DNA from: an uncultured Methanosarcinaceae archaeon
GTDB lineage: Archaea > Halobacteriota > Methanosarcinia > Methanosarcinales > Methanosarcinaceae
Direction of reading: 5' to 3'
Length of the DNA stretch: 64,000 nt
Assembly: GCA_963727895.1 (NCBI GenBank)
Contig: CAVSHT010000012.1
Location: forward strand, 32,001-96,000
Numbering within the stretch: position 1 is the first letter of the stretch; the number at the start of each line of letters is the position of its first letter. The translations under genes were made by a program, and so were the position numbers. The notes beneath the pieces are model-generated. The model was given only the letters and a program-made list of their open reading frames with translations. It was not told where the DNA came from and ran no database searches. Of the stretch, positions 3,482-56,764 are shown piece by piece.

Positions 3482-4220
3482 GGCTTTGATAATTAACTAT
3501 AGTTATATACTATTAGAAAGTATATTTCTTCATGGACTGCCCCAGATGCAATAGTTCTAATCACAAAAAGAATGGTATAGTTGGCGGGCGTCAACGGTAC
3601 AAATGCTCTGATTGTGGCTATAACTATACAGTAGAGTTAAAATCAACTGCTTTTTCTGCTTCTGTAAAAAGACAGGCTTTACAACTCTATCTTGAAGGAT
3701 TGGGCTTTCGCTCAATAGGACGATTTTTAGGGGTAAGTCATGTTTCTGTCCAAAAATGGATAAAGAAATTTGGTCAAGAGTGAGAGAACCTAAAAAGTGA
3801 AAGTGAGATATCTATTGTTGAAATGGATGAGATGCACACTTACATCGGTAACAAAAAAATATTGCTGGATCTGGATTGCTGTTGATATAGCTGGGAAAAA
3901 GTTCATCAACTGCTCTTTTGGTAACAGAGGAACAGAAACTGGAAAACTACTCTGGGAAAAATTGAAGAAAAAAGAGATTGGAGAAGTGATGACAGATCAC
4001 TGGAGGGCATATGCAGAGTTTCTTCCAGAAAAGAGTCATACTCAATCCAAAGCAGAAACATTTACAGTTGAGGGATATAACAGCATATTGAGGCATTTTC
4101 TAGCAAGATTGAGACGAAAGACAAAGTGTTATAAAAAAGTCTTGAAATGCTAAAGTACTCGGTTATTATATTGATGAAATACAGAAATAAAGAGCTAGAC
4201 TATGTTTAGTTAACAATGCC
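3482..4220 (+). mobile_element. IS1-family element copy 1 (defective)
   Basis: InsA zinc ribbon CPRC..CSDC (3532-3783) plus InsB DDE fragment; GG..CC ends; 8-bp target duplication CTACTTAT at 3474-3481 and 4221-4228; internal TGA. Confidence 0.95.
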
Positions 4221-4430: not shown

Positions 4431-6058
4431 ATGTATGGAATAGCACTTGATCTGGGTACCAGCGGTTTTAGAGCCCAGCTTATCGATCTTAACACGAAAG
4501 AAACCTTAAAGACAGTCATAACAATGGGTCATCCCCTTCCTGGGGGAAATGTTATGGACCACCTGGATTTTGCAATCACAACAGGTGAGGATGTGGCTCA
4601 TGCGGTAATTATCGAAACCATCAGGAGGATGTTCCTGCGGTTCGATGTTGACCTTTCCAAAGTGGAACGGCTGGCAGTCTGTGGAAACCCTATTCAGCTT
4701 TCCCTTTTCCAGAATATCGAAATAAGGGATCTGGCTTATGCAGGAGAAAACAAGCAAAAGAAGCTTGGAGTCCAGAATGTAAAAAGAGATGCCCGTGTAT
4801 TTCCTGCTTCCGAGATTTTCGGGGAAAAAGACTTACCAAACTGTGAAGTTATTGTGCCCTCCTGCAATCAAACACGAGATTGGAGCTGACGCTCTGGCTA
4901 TGATGCTTGAAACTGATTTCCTTATCCAGTCCGAACCTTCACTTGTCACGGATTACGGGACAAATGCCGAAATGGCTCTTAAAGTCGGGGATAGGATTAT
5001 CACCGCAAGCGCGGCTGCAGGACCTGCAATTGAAGGACAGGGTATAAGCTCAGGCATGCTCGCAAGCCCGGGTGCGATCTGTGACGTAAAACCTGAAGGA
5101 CAGTACTGGAGAATTATGGTTCTTGACAGGGAAATGGAAAAACAGAATGCTTACCTTATCCATCCGGTTACAGGGGAGATAAAGAGAGTCCTACGGGTAC
5201 GAGGCAGTTGGAATCACCGGCACAGGAGTTATCTCGGCCTTTGCTCTTGCACTCAAAAGCGGGCTGATTGAAAAATCTCCTAAACTTCCGAACGGAAAGC
5301 TGATCCTGGGCCCTGGAATTGAGATCACTGAGAAAGGATGTGGAAGAAGCCGGAAAAGCTATCGGGGCAATCCGGGCTGCTCATATGACTCTGATCGTTG
5401 AATCCGGGATTAAGTACGAAGATCTGGAGTACGCATATATGTCAGGAGCCTCCGGAGCCTATGTGGACGCTGAAGATTCCCGCAGGCTCGGAGCCGCACC
5501 GGGTTATGCAAAAAAAATTGTCCAGTTCGGAAATACCTCGCTTGCGCTTGCTCGGGAACTTGTGCTTGATAAATCCAGGCTGGATGACGTAGTAACGATT
5601 GCAAAGAAAATTACTGCCGACCACCTGATGATGGCAACCAGCGATGACTTTCAACAATTTCTACCTCTGCGAACTTTCCTACTGGACCCAGGGCATGCCT
5701 CTTGAGATGTACGACCAGATGCTTGAACTCTATGGCCTGCCTCCTCCTCCCCAAAACTCTTGAACACGTAAGCATCGAAAAACGAGTCAGCAAAGACATA
5801 GAACAGGTAGGACCAGGTGGGCTTGCCATTCTCAAAGAAATAGGCATAATTCTGGAAGTCCCAGTGGAAAAGTGTATCTACTGCAAAAAATGCGTAAAAG
5901 AATGTCCTGAGTCTGCTCTTGAAATCGTAGAAATAGACGGCAAACGAATCGCAAAATACGACAGCCAGAAATGTCTCGGCACAAGCTGTCACCGCTGTGT
6001 TTCTATCTGCCCTGAAAGTGCCATCGATATAACAAAACTGAAAATTACAGCAAAATAA
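4431..6058 (+). CDS. ramA: Methylamine methyltransferase corrinoid reductive activase (about five +1 frameshifts, probably assembly errors)
   Basis: MYGIALDLGTSG ASKHA-type N-terminus, DYGTNAE, AAAGPAIEG, C-terminal 2x[4Fe-4S] motifs (CIYCKKC..CP); fragments join across single-base insertions near 4858, 5185, 5333, 5650 and 5750. Confidence 0.88.
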
Positions 6059-6440
6059 TTTTATGGTGGATTAAACTTCCACTCATTTTTTTAAGTTTCG
6101 TTTTTCTTAATTCACGGAGTTCATCTCTAACTTAGCTAATATTTTTCTAACTTTTAAAATTGATTTAATTCTCTCGAAGAAATTAAGATTAAAAACAAGA
6201 TCAAAGTATAATTTTAAAAATCAATACAAGTTTAATTACATAATAAATTTCTATGTATAAAGAGAATTAAAGTCCTGAAACTGGAAAAGTAGGTTTATTT
6301 CTGGAAACATCTTCGCATAGTTTGCCGGGGCAAAGTGGGAGCTCTATAAACGATATAAAATTTAATATCTCAGATTAATGTAAAAAATAAATCAAATCAG
6401 AGTTCAAAAGTTTTCAAAAAGGGTTTTCAGAACTCAAGTT

Positions 6441-7220
6441 TTAGAGTACAGAATACAGCATTGACGCTGTTCCTATTCCCAGGGGTTCAGCTATAAGTTG
6501 CACATCATATTTTTTTCGCAGATCTTCAGAAATTGCGTAAGGAATTCCAGGGGTGGAAAGTACACAATTCTCCGAAAGTACAGCTTCAGGAATCGTATTT
6601 GCACATGGGGTTGCCTCGAAAATGGTGGAAAACTTTTTTGGAATTGCAGGGTCGAAAGGAATCATTTCAAGCTTTGAGGTAGTCTTCTTCAGAAGTTTTT
6701 CATCGGCATCATATCCATAAACCTTGAAACTTTTGTTCACAAGATGGGCTGCTCCGGGAAAACCTACCTTTCCGAGTCCAATAACAAGTACATCCTTTGA
6801 TTCGGCTATCAGGTTCCTGGAAGCAATCTCAGCATAGATTATACCTGTGCATGGCTGATTGTTGGCGATTTTTCCGTTTTTGATGTTATGTGCAAGAAAG
6901 GTGTGGTCATCAGCCATAAGGATAATTTCGGCTTCATTCTGTACAGCTTCGTAATAGCCGCTAACATCCGGCGTATCTGTAATAAAGCTGTCAAATCCAA
7001 AATACTGTGTAATTGCATTCAGAGATGCCGAAAAATTACCTATTATCCCGTTTCCTGAAGTTATAGGCACTATACCTACTTTTTCAAAACACGACAAGGT
7101 ACCGTAGAGATTTTCGCAGATTTGTTTTATATCAGATCCTGTTGCTTTCTTTACAGCAGAATCAGCTTTTTGAAGCTGTTTATTTATATTTGCCAAATCA
7201 TCGGGGGTTAAGAGTGCCAT
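6441..7220 (-). CDS. pylD: Pyrrolysine synthase (3-methylornithyl-N6-lysine dehydrogenase)
   Basis: 259 aa; MALLTPDDL start, MADD motif, Rossmann GLGKVG; last gene of the pyl operon. Confidence 0.96.
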   Translation of the reverse strand: MALLTPDDLANINKQLQKADSAVKKATGSDIKQICENLYGTLSCFEKVGIVPITSGNGIIGNFSASLNAITQYFGFDSFITDTPDVSGYYEAVQNEAEIILMADDHTFLAHNIKNGKIANNQPCTGIIYAEIASRNLIAESKDVLVIGLGKVGFPGAAHLVNKSFKVYGYDADEKLLKKTTSKLEMIPFDPAIPKKFSTIFEATPCANTIPEAVLSENCVLSTPGIPYAISEDLRKKYDVQLIAEPLGIGTASMLYSVL

Positions 7221-7299
7221 TTTATTCCTATTTCCTGTTTTTAGAAATTTTTAGTTTTTTAACCTTTTTTAATTCGTTTTCCAGCGCCTCTATTCATTC

Positions 7300-7656
7300 T
7301 TAAGACACAACTCCTAAACGATTTTTCAGAATCGAGATCCCTTTACATTTTTTTTCCTCGGCTTCTTCCTTATCTTTGCCCCAGAAAATCAGGGTAAATA
7401 CCTGTTTTTCTCCTTTGCGAAGCAATATCTCAATGCCAGGTTCTTCATAGAATTTTTCGTAGTCATCATCCTTGGAAAAAGCCAGGTTTCCCACAGGAAC
7501 AAGACCTCCATTTTTTTCGAGTATTAGGTGTTCGTAAATACAGTATTTTTCGCAGATTCCTTCTATATCAAGCCCTTTTACTTTTTCAACGGGAGAATAA
7601 GATTTTTGAAGCTGCTCATTTATATTTGCCAAATCATCTGGAGTTGAGGGTGTCAT
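7300..7656 (-). CDS. Chimeric PylD(1-36)-PylC(C-terminal 82 aa) ORF from a tandem duplication
   Basis: By-eye alignment: 23/36 identities to the PylD N-terminus and 57/82 to the PylC C-terminus; GGAG SD; upstream spacer homologous to the pylD upstream spacer. Confidence 0.85.
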   Translation of the reverse strand: MTPSTPDDLANINEQLQKSYSPVEKVKGLDIEGICEKYCIYEHLILEKNGGLVPVGNLAFSKDDDYEKFYEEPGIEILLRKGEKQVFTLIFWGKDKEEAEEKKCKGISILKNRLGVVS

Positions 7657-7729
7657 ATTATCTCCATTTTCTGCTTTTGGGCATTTTTAATTTCTTTAAT
7701 CTTTTTTAATTCGCTTTTCAGGCTTTATT

Positions 7730-8827
7730 TCATCCTTCATATAGCGCTTCGAAACGATTTTTCAGAATTGAAATTCCTTTGCTTTTATTTTTCTCGGCTT
7801 CTTCTTTATCCTTGCCCCAGAAAATCAAGGTAAATACCGGATTTTCTCCTTTGCAAAGAAAAATCTCAGTGCCGGGCTCTTCATAGAATTTCCCATAATC
7901 GTTTCCCATAGAAAGTACCTGTTCTCCTACGGGAACAAGAATTCCGTTTTCTCCGAGCATTAAGTGTTCATAAATACAATATTTATTTTCAGGAAGAGCA
8001 CTTATTTCCTCAATACCATCAGTAAAAGCGCGGAAAAGGAGTTCTATCAGGTTAATCCCTGATGAATAATAAACGGTTGTTGGGGTCTGGCTTGGAAAAC
8101 GAGCATCGATTTCGATTACTCTAAGCCCTTTTGGGCCGGATATTGCTTCTACATCCATAATTCCTTTCAAGGATAAATTTGCTGCAAGAGTATAGGATAT
8201 CTGCCTGAAGTGAGGTTCAGAAGGAAGAGGGGTAACCGTGTGGCAGTCATAGGTTTCGTCTATATGGATCAGTGTTTCTTTTACCACAGCAAAATGGTTT
8301 CCATCTCCTATAACTTCGAGAGATACCACTTCTCCTTCTACATATTCCTCGACCATCATTCCAGGTTCAAGGTCTCCAAGTTCCTTGTCATCATAGATTA
8401 TTCTGGCTCCAATACTGCTGCTTTCACAGGGAGGTTTTACAAAATAAGGTGGTTCTGAAGGTTTGTCCTGAGGAGTAGGAACTCCTATGGACTTAAAATA
8501 ATCTTTTGAACGTTTTTTGTCCCTGCTTATCCAGTAAGCTTCAAAATCAAAGAGTACCGGGCAGAAGAACTTTTCTTTTATTGAACTTAGAAATTCGATG
8601 CAGACCAGGTTTTCGTTCACAGGAAGTAACGCATCTACGCTTTTTGAGAGTTCAAGAAGTTTTTCAGGTTCTTTTATCACATCAAAACAATGAAATTCAT
8701 CCACATAATTCCGGATAAGGGCTTGCGGATTTTTATCTACCAGAACTACTCTCATTCCTGCTTTTTTAGACAGATATGCAGCTTCGAAGCCCTGGAGTTT
8801 CCCGCCTACAAGACAGATCGTCTTCAA
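7730..8827 (-). CDS. pylC: 3-methylornithine--L-lysine ligase (ATP-grasp)
   Basis: TTG start at 8827 (MKTICLVGGKLQG) after GGGGTG SD; ATP-grasp motifs VKPPCESSS and EIDARFPSQTP. Confidence 0.95.
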   Translation of the reverse strand: MKTICLVGGKLQGFEAAYLSKKAGMRVVLVDKNPQALIRNYVDEFHCFDVIKEPEKLLELSKSVDALLPVNENLVCIEFLSSIKEKFFCPVLFDFEAYWISRDKKRSKDYFKSIGVPTPQDKPSEPPYFVKPPCESSSIGARIIYDDKELGDLEPGMMVEEYVEGEVVSLEVIGDGNHFAVVKETLIHIDETYDCHTVTPLPSEPHFRQISYTLAANLSLKGIMDVEAISGPKGLRVIEIDARFPSQTPTTVYYSSGINLIELLFRAFTDGIEEISALPENKYCIYEHLMLGENGILVPVGEQVLSMGNDYGKFYEEPGTEIFLCKGENPVFTLIFWGKDKEEAEKNKSKGISILKNRFEALYEG

Positions 8828-8828
8828 G

Positions 8829-9880
8829 CTAGCACCCCAAAACTGCCTCAAAGTCAGCCTGCCTGGCAGGCTCCATACCCATAGTCTCAAGCCTTTGGAT
8901 CACACTTTTTATATCCCTGTCTCGTTCTTCAAGGTCGCGGTCATAGTTTGCAACACCTTCCAGTTGAGAATCGGGGGAAGAATCGAAGTAACAATATTTG
9001 CCCCTGCATTTAGGCGATGAACCATTCCATCAATGCCTTCAAGGTCAAGGGATGCAGGTATAAGGCGTTTAGGGAACATTAACCTGAGAACCGAGATAAT
9101 TTTCAGTTCCGAGAGATTTGATTTCTCTCTGAAATTCTCAAGAGGGGTTCCTTCCTGGGGTAAAAAGGTCATAACTCTGACCATATCTGGGTCATTTGAT
9201 TTCATACCTCTCAAGGACAGAATGGTAGACTCGATATCGTTTCCAACACCTGTAAGAATCCCATCTTCTACACAATATCCCTGTTTTTTAGCAAAAAGGC
9301 GTGCATTGACACGTCCATCGAATGACTGTCCAACTCTTAGTTTCCTGTAGAGGTCAGTGTCATAAGTTTCTTGATAAAGAGCCAGGAAATTTGCTCCTTT
9401 TTCTTTAGCTTTAATAAGAGTAGCATTATCCATTACGCCTGGAGAAATCATTATGGGAAGCCCAAGTTCTTCTTTTACTATCTGGACAAGTTCAACGAAC
9501 CTGTTTGGATCTTCATAATAATAGGGATCTTCTCCCATGGTCAGATCAACCATATGAAAACCTGCTCCTTTCAAGGTTTTGCAGGTTTCTTTTATTTCTT
9601 CTGTGGTTAGACGATAGCGATTGATTTCGTTTCCACAGTTATAATAACAAAAAGAACATTGATTTTTACAGTAAGTGGAGAAATAGATGAAACAATTGAG
9701 AAATACTCTGTTTCCAAAATAGTGATCTCTTACTTTTCGCGCTGCAGAGTAAAGTTTTTTCAGATATTCTTCGGATTCAAGGGAGAGAAGCATCCTCAGG
9801 TCGTCGTCAGATAGTTGATAACCTTGAATTATTCTTTCCCCTAACATGTCAAACTCTTCAAGTGCCATTTTTTGAACCAA
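8829..9880 (-). CDS. pylB: Radical SAM methylornithine synthase (one frameshift at G-run 8973-8977; ends at TAG)
   Basis: CKNQCSFC motif; restoring one base gives ...PPDSQLEGVANYDR...QADFEAVLGC then TAG at 8831-8829. Confidence 0.93.
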
Positions 9881-10188
9881 AATTTCACCCTCTCATATGT
9901 TTTTCTAAACTTTACGGCTCAATTGGGGCCGAATTGCCATTTTAATCATTTTTTTAGCTTATTTTGCCATATTGAATTTTATCATCCCGTTTTTTCTATT
10001 TAATTTTCCAATTTTATTTTGCCATTTAGTTTTTCTATTTAATTTTGTCATTATATATTTTTTTGAACGATTGCCTTTCGATTTTACCATTTATATTGCC
10101 ATTTTCTCTTTTGCCATTCAATTATAATGTTCTAATTCTCTTTTATCCGTTTTTAGCTGCTCCAGATTCTTTAAACAAATTTTTTAGC

Positions 10189-11521
<1,333 letters not shown>

Positions 11522-11697
11522 CTACTTACTGAATATAAGCACGGAATCAACAGTTTGCTGACCACTACCCGGAAAATAAAAGTGATCCCATACAGTAGAA
11601 CCAATTTATAAGTTCTGAAAGGTTCTATAATTATTCTGAAAAAAATTTCCAGATTAATAATTGGGGTATTGTGTTGCCATTCCGGGATTCAGAAATA

Positions 11698-11769
11698 TGG
11701 CGGAAACCCCGGGAATCTAACCCGGCTGAACGGATTTAGAGTCCATTCGATCTACATGATCAGGTTCCC
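11698..11769 (-). tRNA. pylT: tRNA-Pyl (anticodon CUA), CCA encoded
   Basis: 72 nt GGGAACCTGATCATGTAGATCGAATGGACTCTAAATCCGTTCAGCCGGGTTAGATTCCCGGGGTTTCCGCCA upstream of pylS. Confidence 0.98.
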
Positions 11770-11908
11770 TCCTAGATAAAATAGATTTAACAAAGCGTTT
11801 TGCTTCCTGTATGGTGATCTTATATTTCATTATAAAATAATAGTGTTTAGTATATATCTTTATTGGTAAAAATCCCTACAAAAAGTTGAACTCTTACTTA
11901 TATTTTTT

Positions 11909-19988: not shown

Positions 19989-21600
19989 TTACGAAGCCAT
20001 ACCCTCTATCATATCCTGAAGGGTATCATTGTCCACAGCTTCCATAACCATCTTCGGATAAGTCTTGGTATGCCTGAACTACGATGGACACCTGAATATA
20101 GTTCCTTATACCATTTTGATACATATAATCCAAAATTTTTCTCCTATTATCCATCTCATTTCTTAATTGGCTGGAATCCCATACTCTTACATCCATAATC
20201 TCCTGTAAGATATGAGAATCCCCAACTTTCGTGAAGCAGTCCTCTAAAGGTTCCCAGTTGAAAAGCTCATTTATGCCAAGATCTCCTGTTTCAGGGTCGA
20301 CATTCAAGACTTCCACAAGACTTCGAGTTCTTCGAACTCTTTTTCCTTCTATGTACACCTGCTCTTGAATACAGAGCACATTCAGAGACTGCAACATAAC
20401 GTGAGGTACGTTTATTGGCTCGTGAGTGAGCCTGTTTACAACAGTCTGTACATCTCCTGCGTGCATTGTTGAGCTTGTTGCATGTCCTGTTGACATTGCC
20501 TGGAAAAGAGTAAGGGCTTCACTGCCTCTGACTTCACCCACAATGATGTAGTCTGGACGCTGTCTGAGAGCAGCTCTCAAAAGATCGTACATGGTAATTT
20601 CTCCAGAAGAATCAGCTGCAAAACCCTCTCTTGCAACCCCGGAAATCCAGTTATTGTGGTAAAGTAAAAGTTCCCTTGTATCTTCAATCGAGACTATTTT
20701 CGTTGTCGAAGGCATGAAAAGGGAAGTAGCATTCAGTATAGACGTTTTTCCTGAAGCTGTACCCCCTGCAAAAAGCATGTTATATCCATTTTCTATAGCC
20801 ATCCAGAAAAATACAAGCATGTCAAGATCGCATGTCTTATAGCCAAGCAAGTCTATAGGAGTCATTGGATCTTTCCTGAACTTACGGATAGTAAAAGAAC
20901 TGCCTCTGGGAGTAATCTCTCTCCCTAAAACCGCCTGAAGTCTTGAGCCGTCCTGGATTGTCGCATCAACTATTGGCTGGCTTACAGAAACGTGTTTATT
21001 ATTCAACTGGCACATCTTAATTACAAGTGCATCAAGTTCCTCTTCTTCAAAAGTAATAATTACTTTCAATATTGAGATATCTGTTATGATAAAAATATAG
21101 AGGTACTCCAACTCCATCGCAGGAAATATCTTCTATATAAGGATCATAAAGGAGAGGATTGATTTTCTCGTATCCCAGCAGGTTTCTTCTAAGGTAGTAC
21201 ATAATTTTTAGAAGCGCTGCTTTTGAAATTTCAGCCTTATAACGTTCGAGAAGAAAGAGAGCTCTATCAACCAGGAATTCATCTTTTTCTGACTTCGAAT
21301 GTGTAGACCTCAAAATAAGGATATCCTGAAAATCTTTATATATTCTTTTTAAGGGTTCTTTCTCAAATTTTGTGAGTGAAGGTTCAATAAGCCTGTAATA
21401 TGTTGTTCTGCTGTCTTCCATAACTGAGACAAAAGTATAAGGTTCCTGAAGCCAGTATCTTTCGATTTCTTTTAGTCCATCAGGCACTACAAATTGTACA
21501 AGAGGTCCTTCTTTTTCTGGATCATACTCTGGCAGAGTCCTTAATGGCCTATCAAAATAGTTTCTAGCTTTTTTATGGTCTCTGCAATAGAGTTATGATC
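19989..21600 (-). CDS. VirB11/FlaI/PilB-type pilus assembly ATPase (several frameshifts, 5' end unclear)
   Basis: IEDISCDG, TIRKF, Walker A GGTASGKT, SIEDTRE, LRQRPDYIIVGEVRG, TGH..TMHA. Confidence 0.85.
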
Positions 21601-35960: not shown

Positions 35961-36700
35961 GGCATTGTTATTTAAATATATCTAGTTCTTTATTTATGTA
36001 TTTTATCAATAGAATAACCGAGTACTTTAGCATTTCAAGACTCTTCGTATAACACTTTGTCTTTCTTCTCAATCTTGCTAGAAAATGCCTCAATATGCTG
36101 TTATATCCCTCAACTGTAAATGTTTCTGCTTTGGATTGAGTATGGATCTTTTCTGGAAGAAACTCTGCATATGCTCTCCAGTGATCTGTCATCACTTCTC
36201 CAATCTCTTTTTTCTTCAATTTTTCCCAGAGTAGTTTTCCAGTTTCCGTTCCTCTGCTACCAAAAGAGCAGTTGATGAACTTTTTCCCAACTCTATCAAC
36301 AGCAATCCAGATCCAGCAATATTTTTTTTTGTTACCGATGTAAGTTGCATCTCGTCCATTTCAACAATAGATATCTCATTTTCACTTTTTAAAGCCTCTA
36401 ACTCCGGACCAAATTTCTTGATCCATCTTTGGACAGAAACATGACTTACCCCTAAAACTCTTCCTATTGAGCGAAAACCCAATCCTTCAAGATAGAGTTG
36501 TAAAGCCTGTCTTTTTGCAGAAGCGGAAAAAGCAGTTGATTTTAGCTCTACTGTATAGTTATATCCACAATCAGAGCATTTGTAGCGTTGACGCCCACCA
36601 ACTATACCGTTCTTTTTGTGACTGGAACTATTGCATCTGGGGCAGTTCATGAAGAAATATATGTTATAAGCATACATATCTATTTTTGTATACCAATGCC
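35961..36700 (-). mobile_element. IS1-family element copy 3 (lacks the shared TGA)
   Basis: Target duplication AATAAAAT at 35953-35960 and 36701-36708; insA reads through KKFGPELEAL; full InsB C-terminus. Confidence 0.95.
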
Positions 36701-36942
36701 AATAAAATATATTCTCAAAATTAAATCTCGACTGGAAATCTGGACTAAAACTCGAATTCAGGTGTGGAGTTGATAGAAAAAATAGTAGCAGAAGTGGAAC
36801 AATAACATACGCGAAAAACCCAAAAAATAAATAACCTGTTCTCAAACACATCTCACGAAATTTACTTAATACATAACAATGAGGTATGGTTTTCAAAGTC
36901 AATATTAGAATTCTAAATGACTTTCAAGCCGATCTCCTTAAT

Positions 36943-53676: not shown

Positions 53677-55387
53677 TTACATAGATTCAGGAGCAGCGAT
53701 TCCAAGCGTATCAAGAGAGTTTGCAAGCACAATCCTTGCGCAATCCACAAGAGCTAACCTTGCCCCTCTGATCTTTTCGTCCTCAGCAGCAATTACAGGG
53801 ACAAAACGATAGAACTGATTAAAGGCATCAGCGAGTTCGCGGGCGTAGATTGCAAGCACATGAGGTTTGAGTTCACGGGCTCCAAGATCTATGATGTTGT
53901 CAAACATTGCCATCTTCTTGATAAGATCGATTTCAGCATCTTCAACAAGTAGGGAAGACTCTATTTCTGTGGAAGAGTTCCAAGCTACTTCTTCTTTTGC
54001 TTTCTCAAGAATACTGCAGGCGCGGGCGTGAGAATACTGGATATAAGGAGCACCTTGCTTCTCAAAGTCAAGAGCTTCTTTCCAGTTGAAAACCGTAGAT
54101 TTTTCTGGCGAGACTCTTACTATGTCGTATCTTACCGCACCTATTCCTACCATTTCAGCAACCTGTTTCTTGAATTCATTAGAGGTTTCAGGACGGCGAG
54201 TTTCGACCTGTTCAAGAGCTGCTTCTGTAACTCTGCCAAAGAGATCATCTGCGCTTATGAACTGACCACGACGGGTGCTCATTGAACCTTCAGGAAGGGA
54301 AACAAACTCGAAGATAACGACTTCAGGTTCCTTGACGCCTATTGCATTCAAAAGTAGCTCTGAGCTGACCTGATATCAATTTGTGGTCAGCCCCAAAGAT
54401 ATCAATTATACGATCTGCCTGCCCAGCTTTCCACTCATGGTAGGCAAGATCTCTGGTAGTGTAAAGGGAAGTACCATTTGAGCGCTGGATAACGAGAGTT
54501 TTTTCAAACCCATAATCCAAAAGGTCTACTACAAGAGCACCTTTGTCCATTTTAGTCCTTCCTGTAGCTTTGATTCTCTCGACAATGTCGTGTACCGCGC
54601 CAGACTTAAGGAAAGTAGATTCGTTGACAAACCTGTCATGGACAACATTTAAGCGAAGCAGAGTTTCTTTAATTCCAGAAACAGCCAGAGAAACTGCCTT
54701 ACTAAAACTATCAATTGTTTTGACATCCCCAGCTTCCACTTTTTCCATAAGAGCATCAATTTCTTTTACGTAATCTGGATTTTTGTCCAGATCTACATTG
54801 GCTTTAATATATACGTCAGCGATAGCAGAATCGGACTTTTTGGAAAGGTCCAGTTCGAAACGTTCACACGCCCAGGAAACTACTGCAATCTGGCGGCCCA
54901 TATCATTGACATAATACTGTACTTCTACATCGTATCCTGCTCTCCTGAGAATACGGGCAAGAGTGTCACCAATAATGGAATTTCTAATATGCCCTACATG
55001 AAGAGGACCATTCGGGTTTGCTGAAGTATGTTCAAGTAAAATTTTATCTTTTGGAACTCCGCAGCCAAATTTTTCCTTTTCTTCCAGAACTGCAGTAACC
55101 GTTCTGTCCAGATAATGCCTACTTGCATGGAAATTAATGTAAGGACCAGAAGCGTTTACCTCTCCTATGTATGAATTATCAGGAATTTCGATTGCAGAAA
55201 CAATGCGGGTTGCAAGTTCTTTCGGATTTTGCTTGTACAAACTTGCCAGCTTGAAAGCGGCCCTGCTCGCAAGGTCAGCGTGAGAAGAGGTTTCGAAATA
55301 AAGTTCGGAATCTTCAATTTCAAGTCCAACTTTTTGGATAGCTTTTTTTAAGATTAATGTAGCTTGAGCTTTGAATTCAAGAAACAA
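53677..55387 (-). CDS. argS: Arginyl-tRNA synthetase (+1 frameshift near 54352, probably an assembly error)
   Basis: GPYINF, EHTSANPNGPLHVGHIRN, MSTRRG, YIQYSHAR, APESM. Confidence 0.95.
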
Positions 55388-55515: not shown

Positions 55516-56764
55516 TCAGACTCCTGTACTGTACCTGAGGATTGCAGCAATGCCTCCGAAAGCGTTCATGAGTTGTGAACCTTCATCAAAGTCTGTAGAC
55601 ACGAAAACAACTTTTGAATTGCTTTTGTCAGCAAGGGCTGAAAGTTCATCAACGATATCGGTAACATCTGTGACTTCAAGAGAAGCTCCACAATTTGGAC
55701 AGTTACCTGCCGTTGGTGCAGGCTCCCCTGGCTTCCATCGCCGCGTCCACTTATTTTCATATCCGCAGACACTGCACTTTGTAGTTACCCTTTCAGCTCG
55801 CAGATCTTCGGAAAGTAGAAGCATATCCACAGCATTGATTTCAAGGTTTGCTCGAACCTGAGTTTCCCCATAGGCTACTTTGCCTGAGTCGGAAATAAGT
55901 TCTTTAAAGAAAGCCTTTACAGCATTCTTCTGTCCCATTAGCTCAAGATCCTGGAGCTTATCTCAGGCAGCATTCACGAGCTCTGAAAGCCCAGATTCGT
56001 CAGTATAAGCCGTATCAAAGAGCCCAAGGATCTTTTCTCATAAGTTCATGGTGCAGAAACTCCCCGGCATAAAACTCTTCCTTTGTAGGGGAAGGTCCTC
56101 CAATCAGGATACCCTTTAGATCTTTGGGCTCAACGGCGAGGAAAATGTCATTTGCGGCATCTCCGATCCTCTTATAGAACTCATGGATAGCAATGAACCT
56201 GAGCTGTTGGAAACGATGGGAACTCTGACCACCTTTTCTCTGTTTTCCTGGAACTGTTGAAGTAAGGTTGCGGAAGGCTTCAATTCGTTTTCCGACCAGA
56301 AGCCCTACAGTAGCTTCCCTGCGGTCAAGGACCAGAAGCCCAAAGGTACCTTTGTCTTTGAGCATGTCCTCGAGAGGTTCAAGATAAAAAGCGGAATCGC
56401 AGTGATATTTGTAAACAGTAATGGGCTCAGGAGGAACAATTAATTCGCTCTCCATACTCGTCTTGTTGGCTCCGATATCCACAGCCCCTGTAAAATATAC
56501 GATTCCGTTTTCAGGAACCTTATCCAGATATCTGAGCCTCGAAAGGAGAGATTCAATAGCTCCCTGTACGTTCGTTCTGGTAAGTTTGGACTTGATGTTT
56601 GCAGCCTGACCATGCTCATCTTTTAATTGGTTTGTAACATCGAAAATTTGTTTATCATTAGGAATATAAAGAGTGATTAACTCAGTACTTCTTCCCCTCT
56701 TATCTCTTAAGCTTTCAAGCTTCTTTTTAAATTCGTACTTTTCGTGTGCAGTTTGTTCAGTCAT
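55516..56764 (-). CDS. prf1: Archaeal peptide chain release factor aRF1 (frameshift near 56035 and in-frame TGA at 55965-55963)
   Basis: NIKS, YHCDSAF, GGQS motifs; C-terminal zinc ribbon CSVC..CPNC; FGGIAAILRY. Confidence 0.92.

Follow-up and report, generated by a model that had tools for sequence, protein, structure and literature searches.

The pylB gene in the 64,000-nt window analysed here, a stretch from the genome of an uncultured Methanosarcinaceae archaeon (G000), ends in an amber codon that stands between the Shine-Dalgarno (SD) site and the start codon of pylC, the next gene of its pyrrolysine (Pyl) biosynthesis cluster. We conclude that this TAG is selectively maintained across the Methanosarcinaceae, beyond what chance would allow, and that it probably serves to balance the supply of Pyl against the need for it. 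We further propose, at a probability of roughly 0.4, that the pylB UAG is a selected part of a translational-coupling junction, at which charged tRNA-Pyl would cut the amount of PylC made per PylB. The balance of supply and demand in cells that read UAG both as a stop and as Pyl is the question of two recent PNAS papers, one of which postulates a sensor of read-through efficiency. A selectively kept pylB TAG one base ahead of the pylC start turns a brief published speculation into one that can be tested in a tractable organism, and the strong conservation would still need explaining if the feedback idea fails. Coordinates are positions in the window, and all pyl genes lie on its minus strand.

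The pylB-pylC junction

The elements of the junction are the following.

8829..9880, minus strand: pylB, methylornithine synthase, TAG stop included, in two frames (TIGR03910 profile 4-302 and 303-347)
8833..8838, minus strand: GGGGTG, SD-like site for pylC within the last pylB codons (sequence; G-run conserved in the alignment)
8829..8831, minus strand: TAG stop of pylB (sequence and translation)
8828, minus strand: spacer base C, between the pylB stop and the pylC start (sequence)
7730..8827, minus strand: pylC, 3-methylornithine--lysine ligase, with a TTG start at 8827-8825 (TIGR03909 profile 1-374, E 4e-165)
8766..8828, minus strand: frame of the read-through extension (+1 to pylC), 20 codons long and closed by TAA (translation)

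With a frame break repaired at a G-run (see the last section), pylB ends ...GCA GTT TTG GGG TGC TAG (...AVLGC-stop), the TAG lying at 8831-8829; there follow a C (8828) and then TTG AAG ACG ATC... from 8827, which encodes the PylC N-terminus, MKTICLVGGKLQG. By inspection, GGGGUG can form six pairs, one of them G-U, with the anti-SD at the 16S 3′ end of G000 itself (...GGATCACCTCCT), and it ends five bases before the pylC start. The frame past the TAG encodes LEDDLSCRRETPGLRSCISV and then reaches TAA at 8768-8766; by translation, read-through adds Pyl and 20 residues to PylB. The placement of the TAG between a GGGGUG SD and the UUG start of pylC (8827), as well as a read-through peptide of 21 residues out of frame with pylC, had been put forward in an initial annotation of this DNA, and both hold. 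The two genes are co-directed and nearly contiguous, as in a coupled pair, and the one-base gap of G000 recurs in 72 of 138 other genomes.

The same annotation had remarked that every other recognisable gene in the window stops at TAA or TGA, and this, too, is borne out: the stop of the 42 window open reading frames (ORFs) with 150 aa or more is TAA in 22 cases, TGA in 20 and never TAG. Only two TAG-ending ORFs besides pylB are found in the window (70 and 73 aa), neither of which matches a Pfam family.

Conservation of the junction across Methanosarcinaceae

A match to TIGR03910 is present in 139 of 151 sampled Methanosarcinaceae genomes, G000 included, and the pylB stops and pylB-pylC spacings of the other 138 were tabulated, as the initial annotation had called for:

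TAG, one base, pylC start: 69 of 138 genomes
TAA, one base, pylC start: 3 of 138 genomes (G136, G022, G035)
TAA, gap of 3-4: 2 of 138 genomes
TGA overlapping the pylC start (ATGA or GTGA): 42 of 138 genomes
TAG 13 nt inside pylC: 3 of 138 genomes
TAG +10, TGA +20, TGA +2, TAA -1: 1 genome each of 138
Spacer of 77-279 nt (12) or no adjacent pylC match (3): 15 of 138 genomes

TAG ends pylB in 69 of the 72 other genomes that have the layout stop, one base, start (stop-N-start), well above the control rate of about 5% described below. The 69 genomes with TAG fall into eight genus-level groups (g1, Methanosarcina, 32/33; g2, 2/2; g7, 1/2; g8, Methanohalophilus, 11/11; g9, 1/1; g10, Methanococcoides, 13/13; g13, 6/6; g15, 3/3); other groups in the sample include g4 (Methanolobus), g16 (Methanomethylovorans) and g3 (Ca. 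Methanovorans, ANME-3). Wherever TAG occupies this layout, the one-base distance to the pylC start is fixed. A second set of 80 named loci, taken from a genome-contig search and largely overlapping the first sample, comprises 44 loci with TAG+1, 29 with TGA-4, three with TAG-13 and four singletons. When the PylB tree is rooted with the sole PylB found outside the family, TAG+1 is paraphyletic, with the ATGA genera nested inside it as a single clade (support 0.89), which makes TAG+1 the older state. Among relatives, the read-through extension measures 14, 20, 23, 25, 39 or 42 codons. The codon at the pylC start position in Methanosarcina is TTG in 22 genomes, CTG in 7 and ATG in 4 (n=33); outside Methanosarcina it is ATG or GTG.

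Some variants are recorded here in their own right. The seven Methanosarcina loci with CTG at the conserved start position (L017, L052, L019, L026, L022, L018 and L030; 7/33 genomes) have an in-frame TTG 8 codons upstream, inside pylB Phe-Glu codons. In the two Methanosarcina-type records that use TGA, the TAG was lost by different routes, about 1050 nt into the pylB match: L161 reads ...TGC TAT AAT TGA, with a TTGA overlap, L178 reads TGC TGA ATG, with a gap of 0, and the tight coupling layout is kept in both. Within the ATGA clade, L090 (G062), L085 (G115) and L104 (G014) have lost the TGA, and pylB extends 13 nt into pylC to a TAG that derives from PylC Ser-Ile-Ala codons; this second route to an amber-ending pylB is apparently incidental. 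In a phylum sample of 400 genomes, PylB was found in only one other family (2/4 genomes), where it ends in TAA and has no adjacent pylC. Second pylB copies, likewise ending in TAA with no neighbouring pylC, occur at L126 (G080), in a Methanococcoides genome, and at L322 and L323 (G195), in that sole other family. The genome-contig search, with Methanomassiliicoccales and bacteria outside its reach, returned pyl loci of the Methanosarcinaceae type only.

Selection on the amber codon

TAG is a rare stop in these organisms. Among the non-nested ORFs of G000, an approximate proxy for the genes of an assembly with many errors, it terminates 6.9% of those with 100 aa or more and 3.9% of those with 300 aa or more; its share of TAG+TAA is 0.065-0.11. 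For Pyl-positive Methanosarcinaceae a median TAG stop use of 4.9% is given by Shalvarjian et al. (2025; PMC12626013). An empirical control was provided by four other G000 genes that end in TAG at a full-length family match, whose best matches were read in about 30 other Methanosarcina genomes, leaving out partial or contig-end matches (1, 0, 1 and 2, respectively, in the order that follows). TAG was found in 0/28 orthologues of the DNA ligase, 2/29 of iPGM, 1/28 of the MATE transporter and 3/27 of the histidine kinase, that is, it was kept in 6/112, a background rate of about 5% to be set against the 69/72 at pylB.

The layout itself does not call for the amber codon. Elsewhere in G000, junctions in which one base separates a stop from the next start number 11 with TAA, 12 with TGA and none with TAG; since all 23 (23/23) are TAA or TGA, the stop-N-start geometry needs no G, and a geometry favouring TAG was rejected as an explanation. 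So was a role of TAG as part of the SD, because by inspection only its T could pair with the 16S 3′ end, and T is common to all stops.

On a tree built from pylB and pylC of the 72 same-layout genomes, parsimony counts three changes at the third base of the stop, all from G to A, and none at the first two. The spacer base changed eight times (A 25, C 24, G 21, T 2; n=72), its length being invariant and its identity free; the first base of the pylC start changed six times and each of the three positions in the final sense codon 7-8 times. As controls we used 17 synonymous A/G third positions of invariant Lys, Glu and Gln codons, which show 3-11 changes (mean 7.35). With one of the 17 also at 3, the raw count at the third base is no outlier by itself, and the argument for selection rests on direction, the genome's TAG/(TAG+TAA) share being 0.065-0.11 and yet 69/72 tips having TAG. 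We therefore simulated a two-state process on the pylBC tree from a TAG root (5000 runs) and scaled its rate to the control sites (rate 1.0 corresponds to 5.9 changes and rate 1.5 to 8.3). The probability of at least 69/72 TAG tips was:

Equilibrium G 0.08: 0 of 5000 at rates 0.5, 1.0 and 1.3
Equilibrium G 0.2: 0.004 at rate 0.5; 0 of 5000 at rates 1.0 and 1.3
Equilibrium G 0.35: 0.074 at rate 0.5; 0.002 at rate 1.0; 0 of 5000 at rate 1.3
Equilibrium G 0.5: 0.21 at rate 0.5; 0.022 at rate 1.0; 0.005 at rate 1.3

Neutral retention of TAG is rejected under realistic settings, and both the contrast with the control genes and the simulation place the conservation of the pylB stop beyond background.

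A proposed model of read-through feedback on pylC

A ribosome that ends pylB would halt with UAG in its A site, where the choice lies between aRF1 and Pyl-tRNA, and, judging from ordinary footprint sizes, it would cover the SD and the start codon of pylC while it does so. When aRF1 wins, termination would take place one base from the pylC start and lead to re-initiation on pylC. When Pyl-tRNA wins, the ribosome would continue for 14-42 codons, out of frame over the pylC start, and end too far away to re-initiate; PylB would also gain a Pyl-containing tail, a possible second output. A rise in charged tRNA-Pyl would then lower the ratio of PylC to PylB and so act as a mild homeostatic check on the making of pyrrolysine, although we infer both the effect on PylC output and its sign. 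If the model is true, the product of the operon, as Pyl-tRNA, would decode the stop of the first gene and cancel termination-reinitiation on the next, and the junction would account for some of the read-through sensing required by the 2025 PNAS model. The wider claim, that the junction acts in Methanosarcinaceae as a cis-acting sensor of the efficiency of UAG read-through, is more tentative, and we regard it as doubtful.

Two of the model's elements come from published work, namely the steep dependence of re-initiation on distance and the presence of Pyl in PylB. In Haloferax and in E. coli, re-initiation drops to almost nothing once the stop is about 20 nt from the start (Huber et al., 2023), and ribosomes that read through for 14-42 codons are therefore plausibly lost for pylC. 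The mostly TTG or CTG starts of pylC in Methanosarcina fit with a dependence on re-initiation. PylB is counted as one of a small number of proteins in which Pyl has been confirmed by experiment, and pylB is described as having no PYLIS, in a preprint by Kivenson et al. (2024), and the incorporation of Pyl in PylB is also stated, citing O'Donoghue 2014, by Shalvarjian et al. (2025; PMC12626013). The latter authors raise the idea that the fraction of long PylB reports read-through and tunes the pathway, and describe an up-regulation of the remaining pyl genes in pyl knock-outs, via a postulated read-through sensor. In ribosome profiling of M. acetivorans, UAG is the strongest pause codon, with a dwell time that depends on the charging of tRNA-Pyl, and tRNA-Pyl is charged to 21% on methanol vs 58% on trimethylamine (TMA) (Britt et al., 2026; PMC13663744). 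The amber end of pylB was itself recorded earlier and taken as a plain stop (Rother and Krzycki, 2010; PMC2933860).

The initial annotation had left it undecided whether its proposal had been reported before. The pylB TAG and the tuning idea are already published; a link to pylC coupling was not found in the texts examined. No text that came up in the literature search connects the UAG of pylB with translational coupling or with the start of pylC, with the proviso that supplementary per-gene tables may list pylB, and the passages of Britt et al. (2026; PMC13663744) that name pylB or pylC are silent on the pylB-pylC junction. As far as examined, the published texts mention neither a UAG between the pylC SD and start, nor the one-base spacing, nor the frequent TTG/CTG starts of pylC, nor a family-wide test of conservation. 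What the present analysis adds to those texts is the geometry of the coupling and the test of conservation, and these make the hypothesis directly testable.

Points against the model and alternative explanations

Several observations weigh against a regulatory junction of this kind. The device is dispensable: the pyl system is retained where TAA takes the place of TAG (G136, G022 and 3/3 genomes of group g6), as it is in the 42 genomes with an ATGA-type TGA overlap (mainly Methanolobus and Methanomethylovorans), and a pylB changed from TAG to TAA is functional in E. coli (Rother and Krzycki, 2010; PMC2933860). TAG is absent in one Methanosarcina species, in Methanohalobium-like genomes and in the Methanolobus/Methanomethylovorans clade, and TGA is used by L161 and L178. 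The ATG or GTG starts outside Methanosarcina mean that a weak pylC start is not general, and the pathway's first committed step is not that of PylC. The three changes at the third base lie inside the control range, 1/17 control sites being equally low, and an unbiased equilibrium (0.5) makes retention less improbable (P = 0.21 at rate 0.5). Across 32 junction sequences RNAalifold predicted 0 pairs. Finally, ribosomes are described as reading through a UAG that lacks a PYLIS in a minority of cases (Rother and Krzycki, 2010; PMC2933860), so that the dynamic range is probably small, under two-fold. The initial annotation had spoken of a candidate pyrrolysine-sensing feedback switch. Its basis stands, in that the TAG is under selection at a fixed spacing, Pyl is found in PylB according to the literature and re-initiation depends on distance; "switch" is too strong a word for a range that is probably under two-fold, and the plausible mechanism would be a modest trim at most, which some genomes do without.

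A long hairpin that takes in the SD, the UAG and the pylC start can form in G000 only (8730-8880, minus strand; -51.2 kcal/mol, z -2.26); in it, CUGGGG pairs with CUCCAG of the GGKLQG codons. Scored on the alignment, this hairpin has 69.2% of cells paired vs 68.2% in shuffled controls, pairs changed on both sides are not enriched, and no conserved hairpin with covariation, of the PYLIS type, was found 3′ of the UAG. A PYLIS-like or SD-sequestering structure was rejected as a conserved element on the RNAalifold null and the shuffle control.

Selection on TAG fits equally well with a role of the UAG through PylB, in which Pyl and a tail of 14-42 residues would give an isoform that differs in activity, stability or partners, the fraction of long PylB would report read-through and tune the first step of the pathway, and the proximity of pylC would be ordinary operon packing. 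The same idea appears in Shalvarjian et al. (2025; PMC12626013), the preprint of Kivenson et al. (2024) states that Pyl in PylB is experimentally confirmed, and it is PylB that catalyses the first committed step. We nevertheless consider this account unlikely. The tail differs between genera in length and sequence and is merely the +1 frame of the pylC N-terminus, which argues that no specific tail peptide is conserved for its own sake, and the invariant one-base spacing that accompanies TAG would be left unexplained.

A second alternative, in which the UAG is a plain stop with no regulatory role, kept by inheritance and by local constraint, for example from the ribosome-binding region of pylC, has on its side the natural TAA variants and the working TAA version in E. 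coli (Rother and Krzycki, 2010; PMC2933860), the ATGA clade without TAG, a third-base count (3) within the control range of 3-11, and the combination of a slow rate with an unbiased equilibrium, at which retention is not significant (P = 0.21). It is somewhat unlikely in our view, because ordinary TAG stops of G000 are kept in only 6/112 orthologues, the other stop-N-start junctions are TAA or TGA (23/23), 0/5000 simulations reproduce the retention at the genome's real TAG share (0.065-0.11), and inspection finds no match of the A and G of TAG to the anti-SD. Quite improbable is a third account, which makes UAG a slow terminator whose pause on the pylC start raises re-initiation largely independently of Pyl-tRNA, as an enhancer and not as a sensor. 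The strong pausing at UAG in M. acetivorans and the mostly TTG or CTG starts of Methanosarcina pylC speak for it, but genera with an ATG start keep TAG equally (g8 11/11, g10 13/13), and since the dwell time depends on the charging of tRNA-Pyl (Britt et al., 2026; PMC13663744), slow termination merges into the sensing model.

Comparison with known systems

Feedback that acts through what a ribosome does at a stop codon is known from the autoregulation of release factor 2 (prfB), where a +1 frameshift at an in-frame UGA senses the release factor. The proposed coupling of pylC to the pylB UAG is alike in that the fate of the ribosome at a stop in the pathway's own mRNA would be set by the pathway product; it differs in that its putative function would rely on read-through instead of a frameshift and would sense an aminoacyl-tRNA. 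In trp and his attenuation, a ribosome on a leader peptide reads charged end-product tRNA at the cognate codons and acts on transcription termination. There, too, the level of charged tRNA sets the expression of biosynthetic genes, but through a separate leader, whereas the codon that senses would here terminate the first enzyme gene, and translation of the following gene would be the output. The junction resembles the termination-reinitiation coupling of archaea and bacteria in that co-directed genes lie very close and the downstream SD is inside the upstream gene (Huber et al., 2023); the typical coupling overlap is -4 or -1 with TGA or TAA, while the stop here could be suppressed by the operon's own product. 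UAG is also decoded as Pyl in Methanosarcina mRNA at mtmB, where a PYLIS hairpin follows it, unlike at pylB, where no conserved structure was found after the UAG, in agreement with the preprint of Kivenson et al. (2024). The amber stops of pylB in print for M. acetivorans, M. mazei and Methanococcoides burtonii are the same codon at the same position.

The pyl cluster and the integrity of the assembly

The pylTSBCD cluster is complete on the minus strand, and NCBIfam equivalog models match all four of its protein genes, PylS, PylB, PylC and PylD, in a profile search. Its remaining members are:

11698..11769, minus strand: pylT, tRNA-Pyl, anticodon CUA (ARAGORN)
10189..11461, minus strand: pylS, pyrrolysyl-tRNA synthetase, in two overlapping ORFs (NF007083 profile 1-288 and 288-425)
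6441..7220, minus strand: pylD (TIGR03911 profile 1-266, E 1e-107)

Both pylB and pylS are split in the assembly. The pylB ORF at 9880-8909 matches TIGR03910 positions 4-302 and the 47 codons at 8972-8832 match positions 303-347, the frame break being located at the run 8973-8977. We aligned contigs of closely related populations from four sequencing runs to window positions 6300-11800; the runs were picked by sequencing-run shares (0.13-0.43, over 20 runs with the stretch or part of it; four added by sample had next to none). Behind position 8972 the related contigs carry one extra base in 3/4 runs, and the fourth run has one gap somewhere in this stretch. Both pylB parts lie in one frame in 136/138 other Methanosarcinaceae genomes, and the repair of the G-run, on which the initial annotation relied, is justified. 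At 10603, the site of the pylS frameshift, related contigs have one base fewer in 4/4 runs, so the one-base insertion that splits pylS near this position is most likely an assembly error.

Other ORFs are split as well, namely the essential genes argS (53680-55387) and aRF1 (55519-56764) and a T2SSE ATPase gene (20029-21487), and ramA (4431-6055) is broken into four pieces. The completeness of G000 is 84% in only 19 contigs. The assembly thus seems rich in single-base indels, and any frameshift in G000 is suspect. About 1 kb ahead of the window lies an mtmB homologue with a single in-frame TAG (G000:C12:29573-30919), and the organism has with it a gene that requires Pyl. Three observations, namely that related populations lack the frameshifts, that even essential genes are broken in this assembly and that the genome has an mtmB interrupted by a TAG, lead us to conclude that the breaks in pylB and pylS are assembly errors and that the organism decodes Pyl; on the same grounds, a true pseudogenisation of the pyl system is unlikely.

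The mtmB homologue adjoins the fragmented ramA and the pyl cluster. Between pylC and pylD, an ORF of 118 aa (7300-7656, minus strand) is a chimera, the first ~13 residues of which resemble the PylD N-terminus and the remainder of which matches the PylC C-terminus (TIGR03909 profile 268-374); its sequence suggests that the pylC/pylD junction was duplicated in tandem. Contigs of related populations cover the ORF. In the 30 other pyl loci checked no such ORF occurs, and the pylC-pylD gap is ~15-190 nt. Two pairs of IS1-family transposase genes, each made up of an HTH_23 part and a DDE_Tnp_IS1 part, lie at 3532-4150 and 35971-36902.

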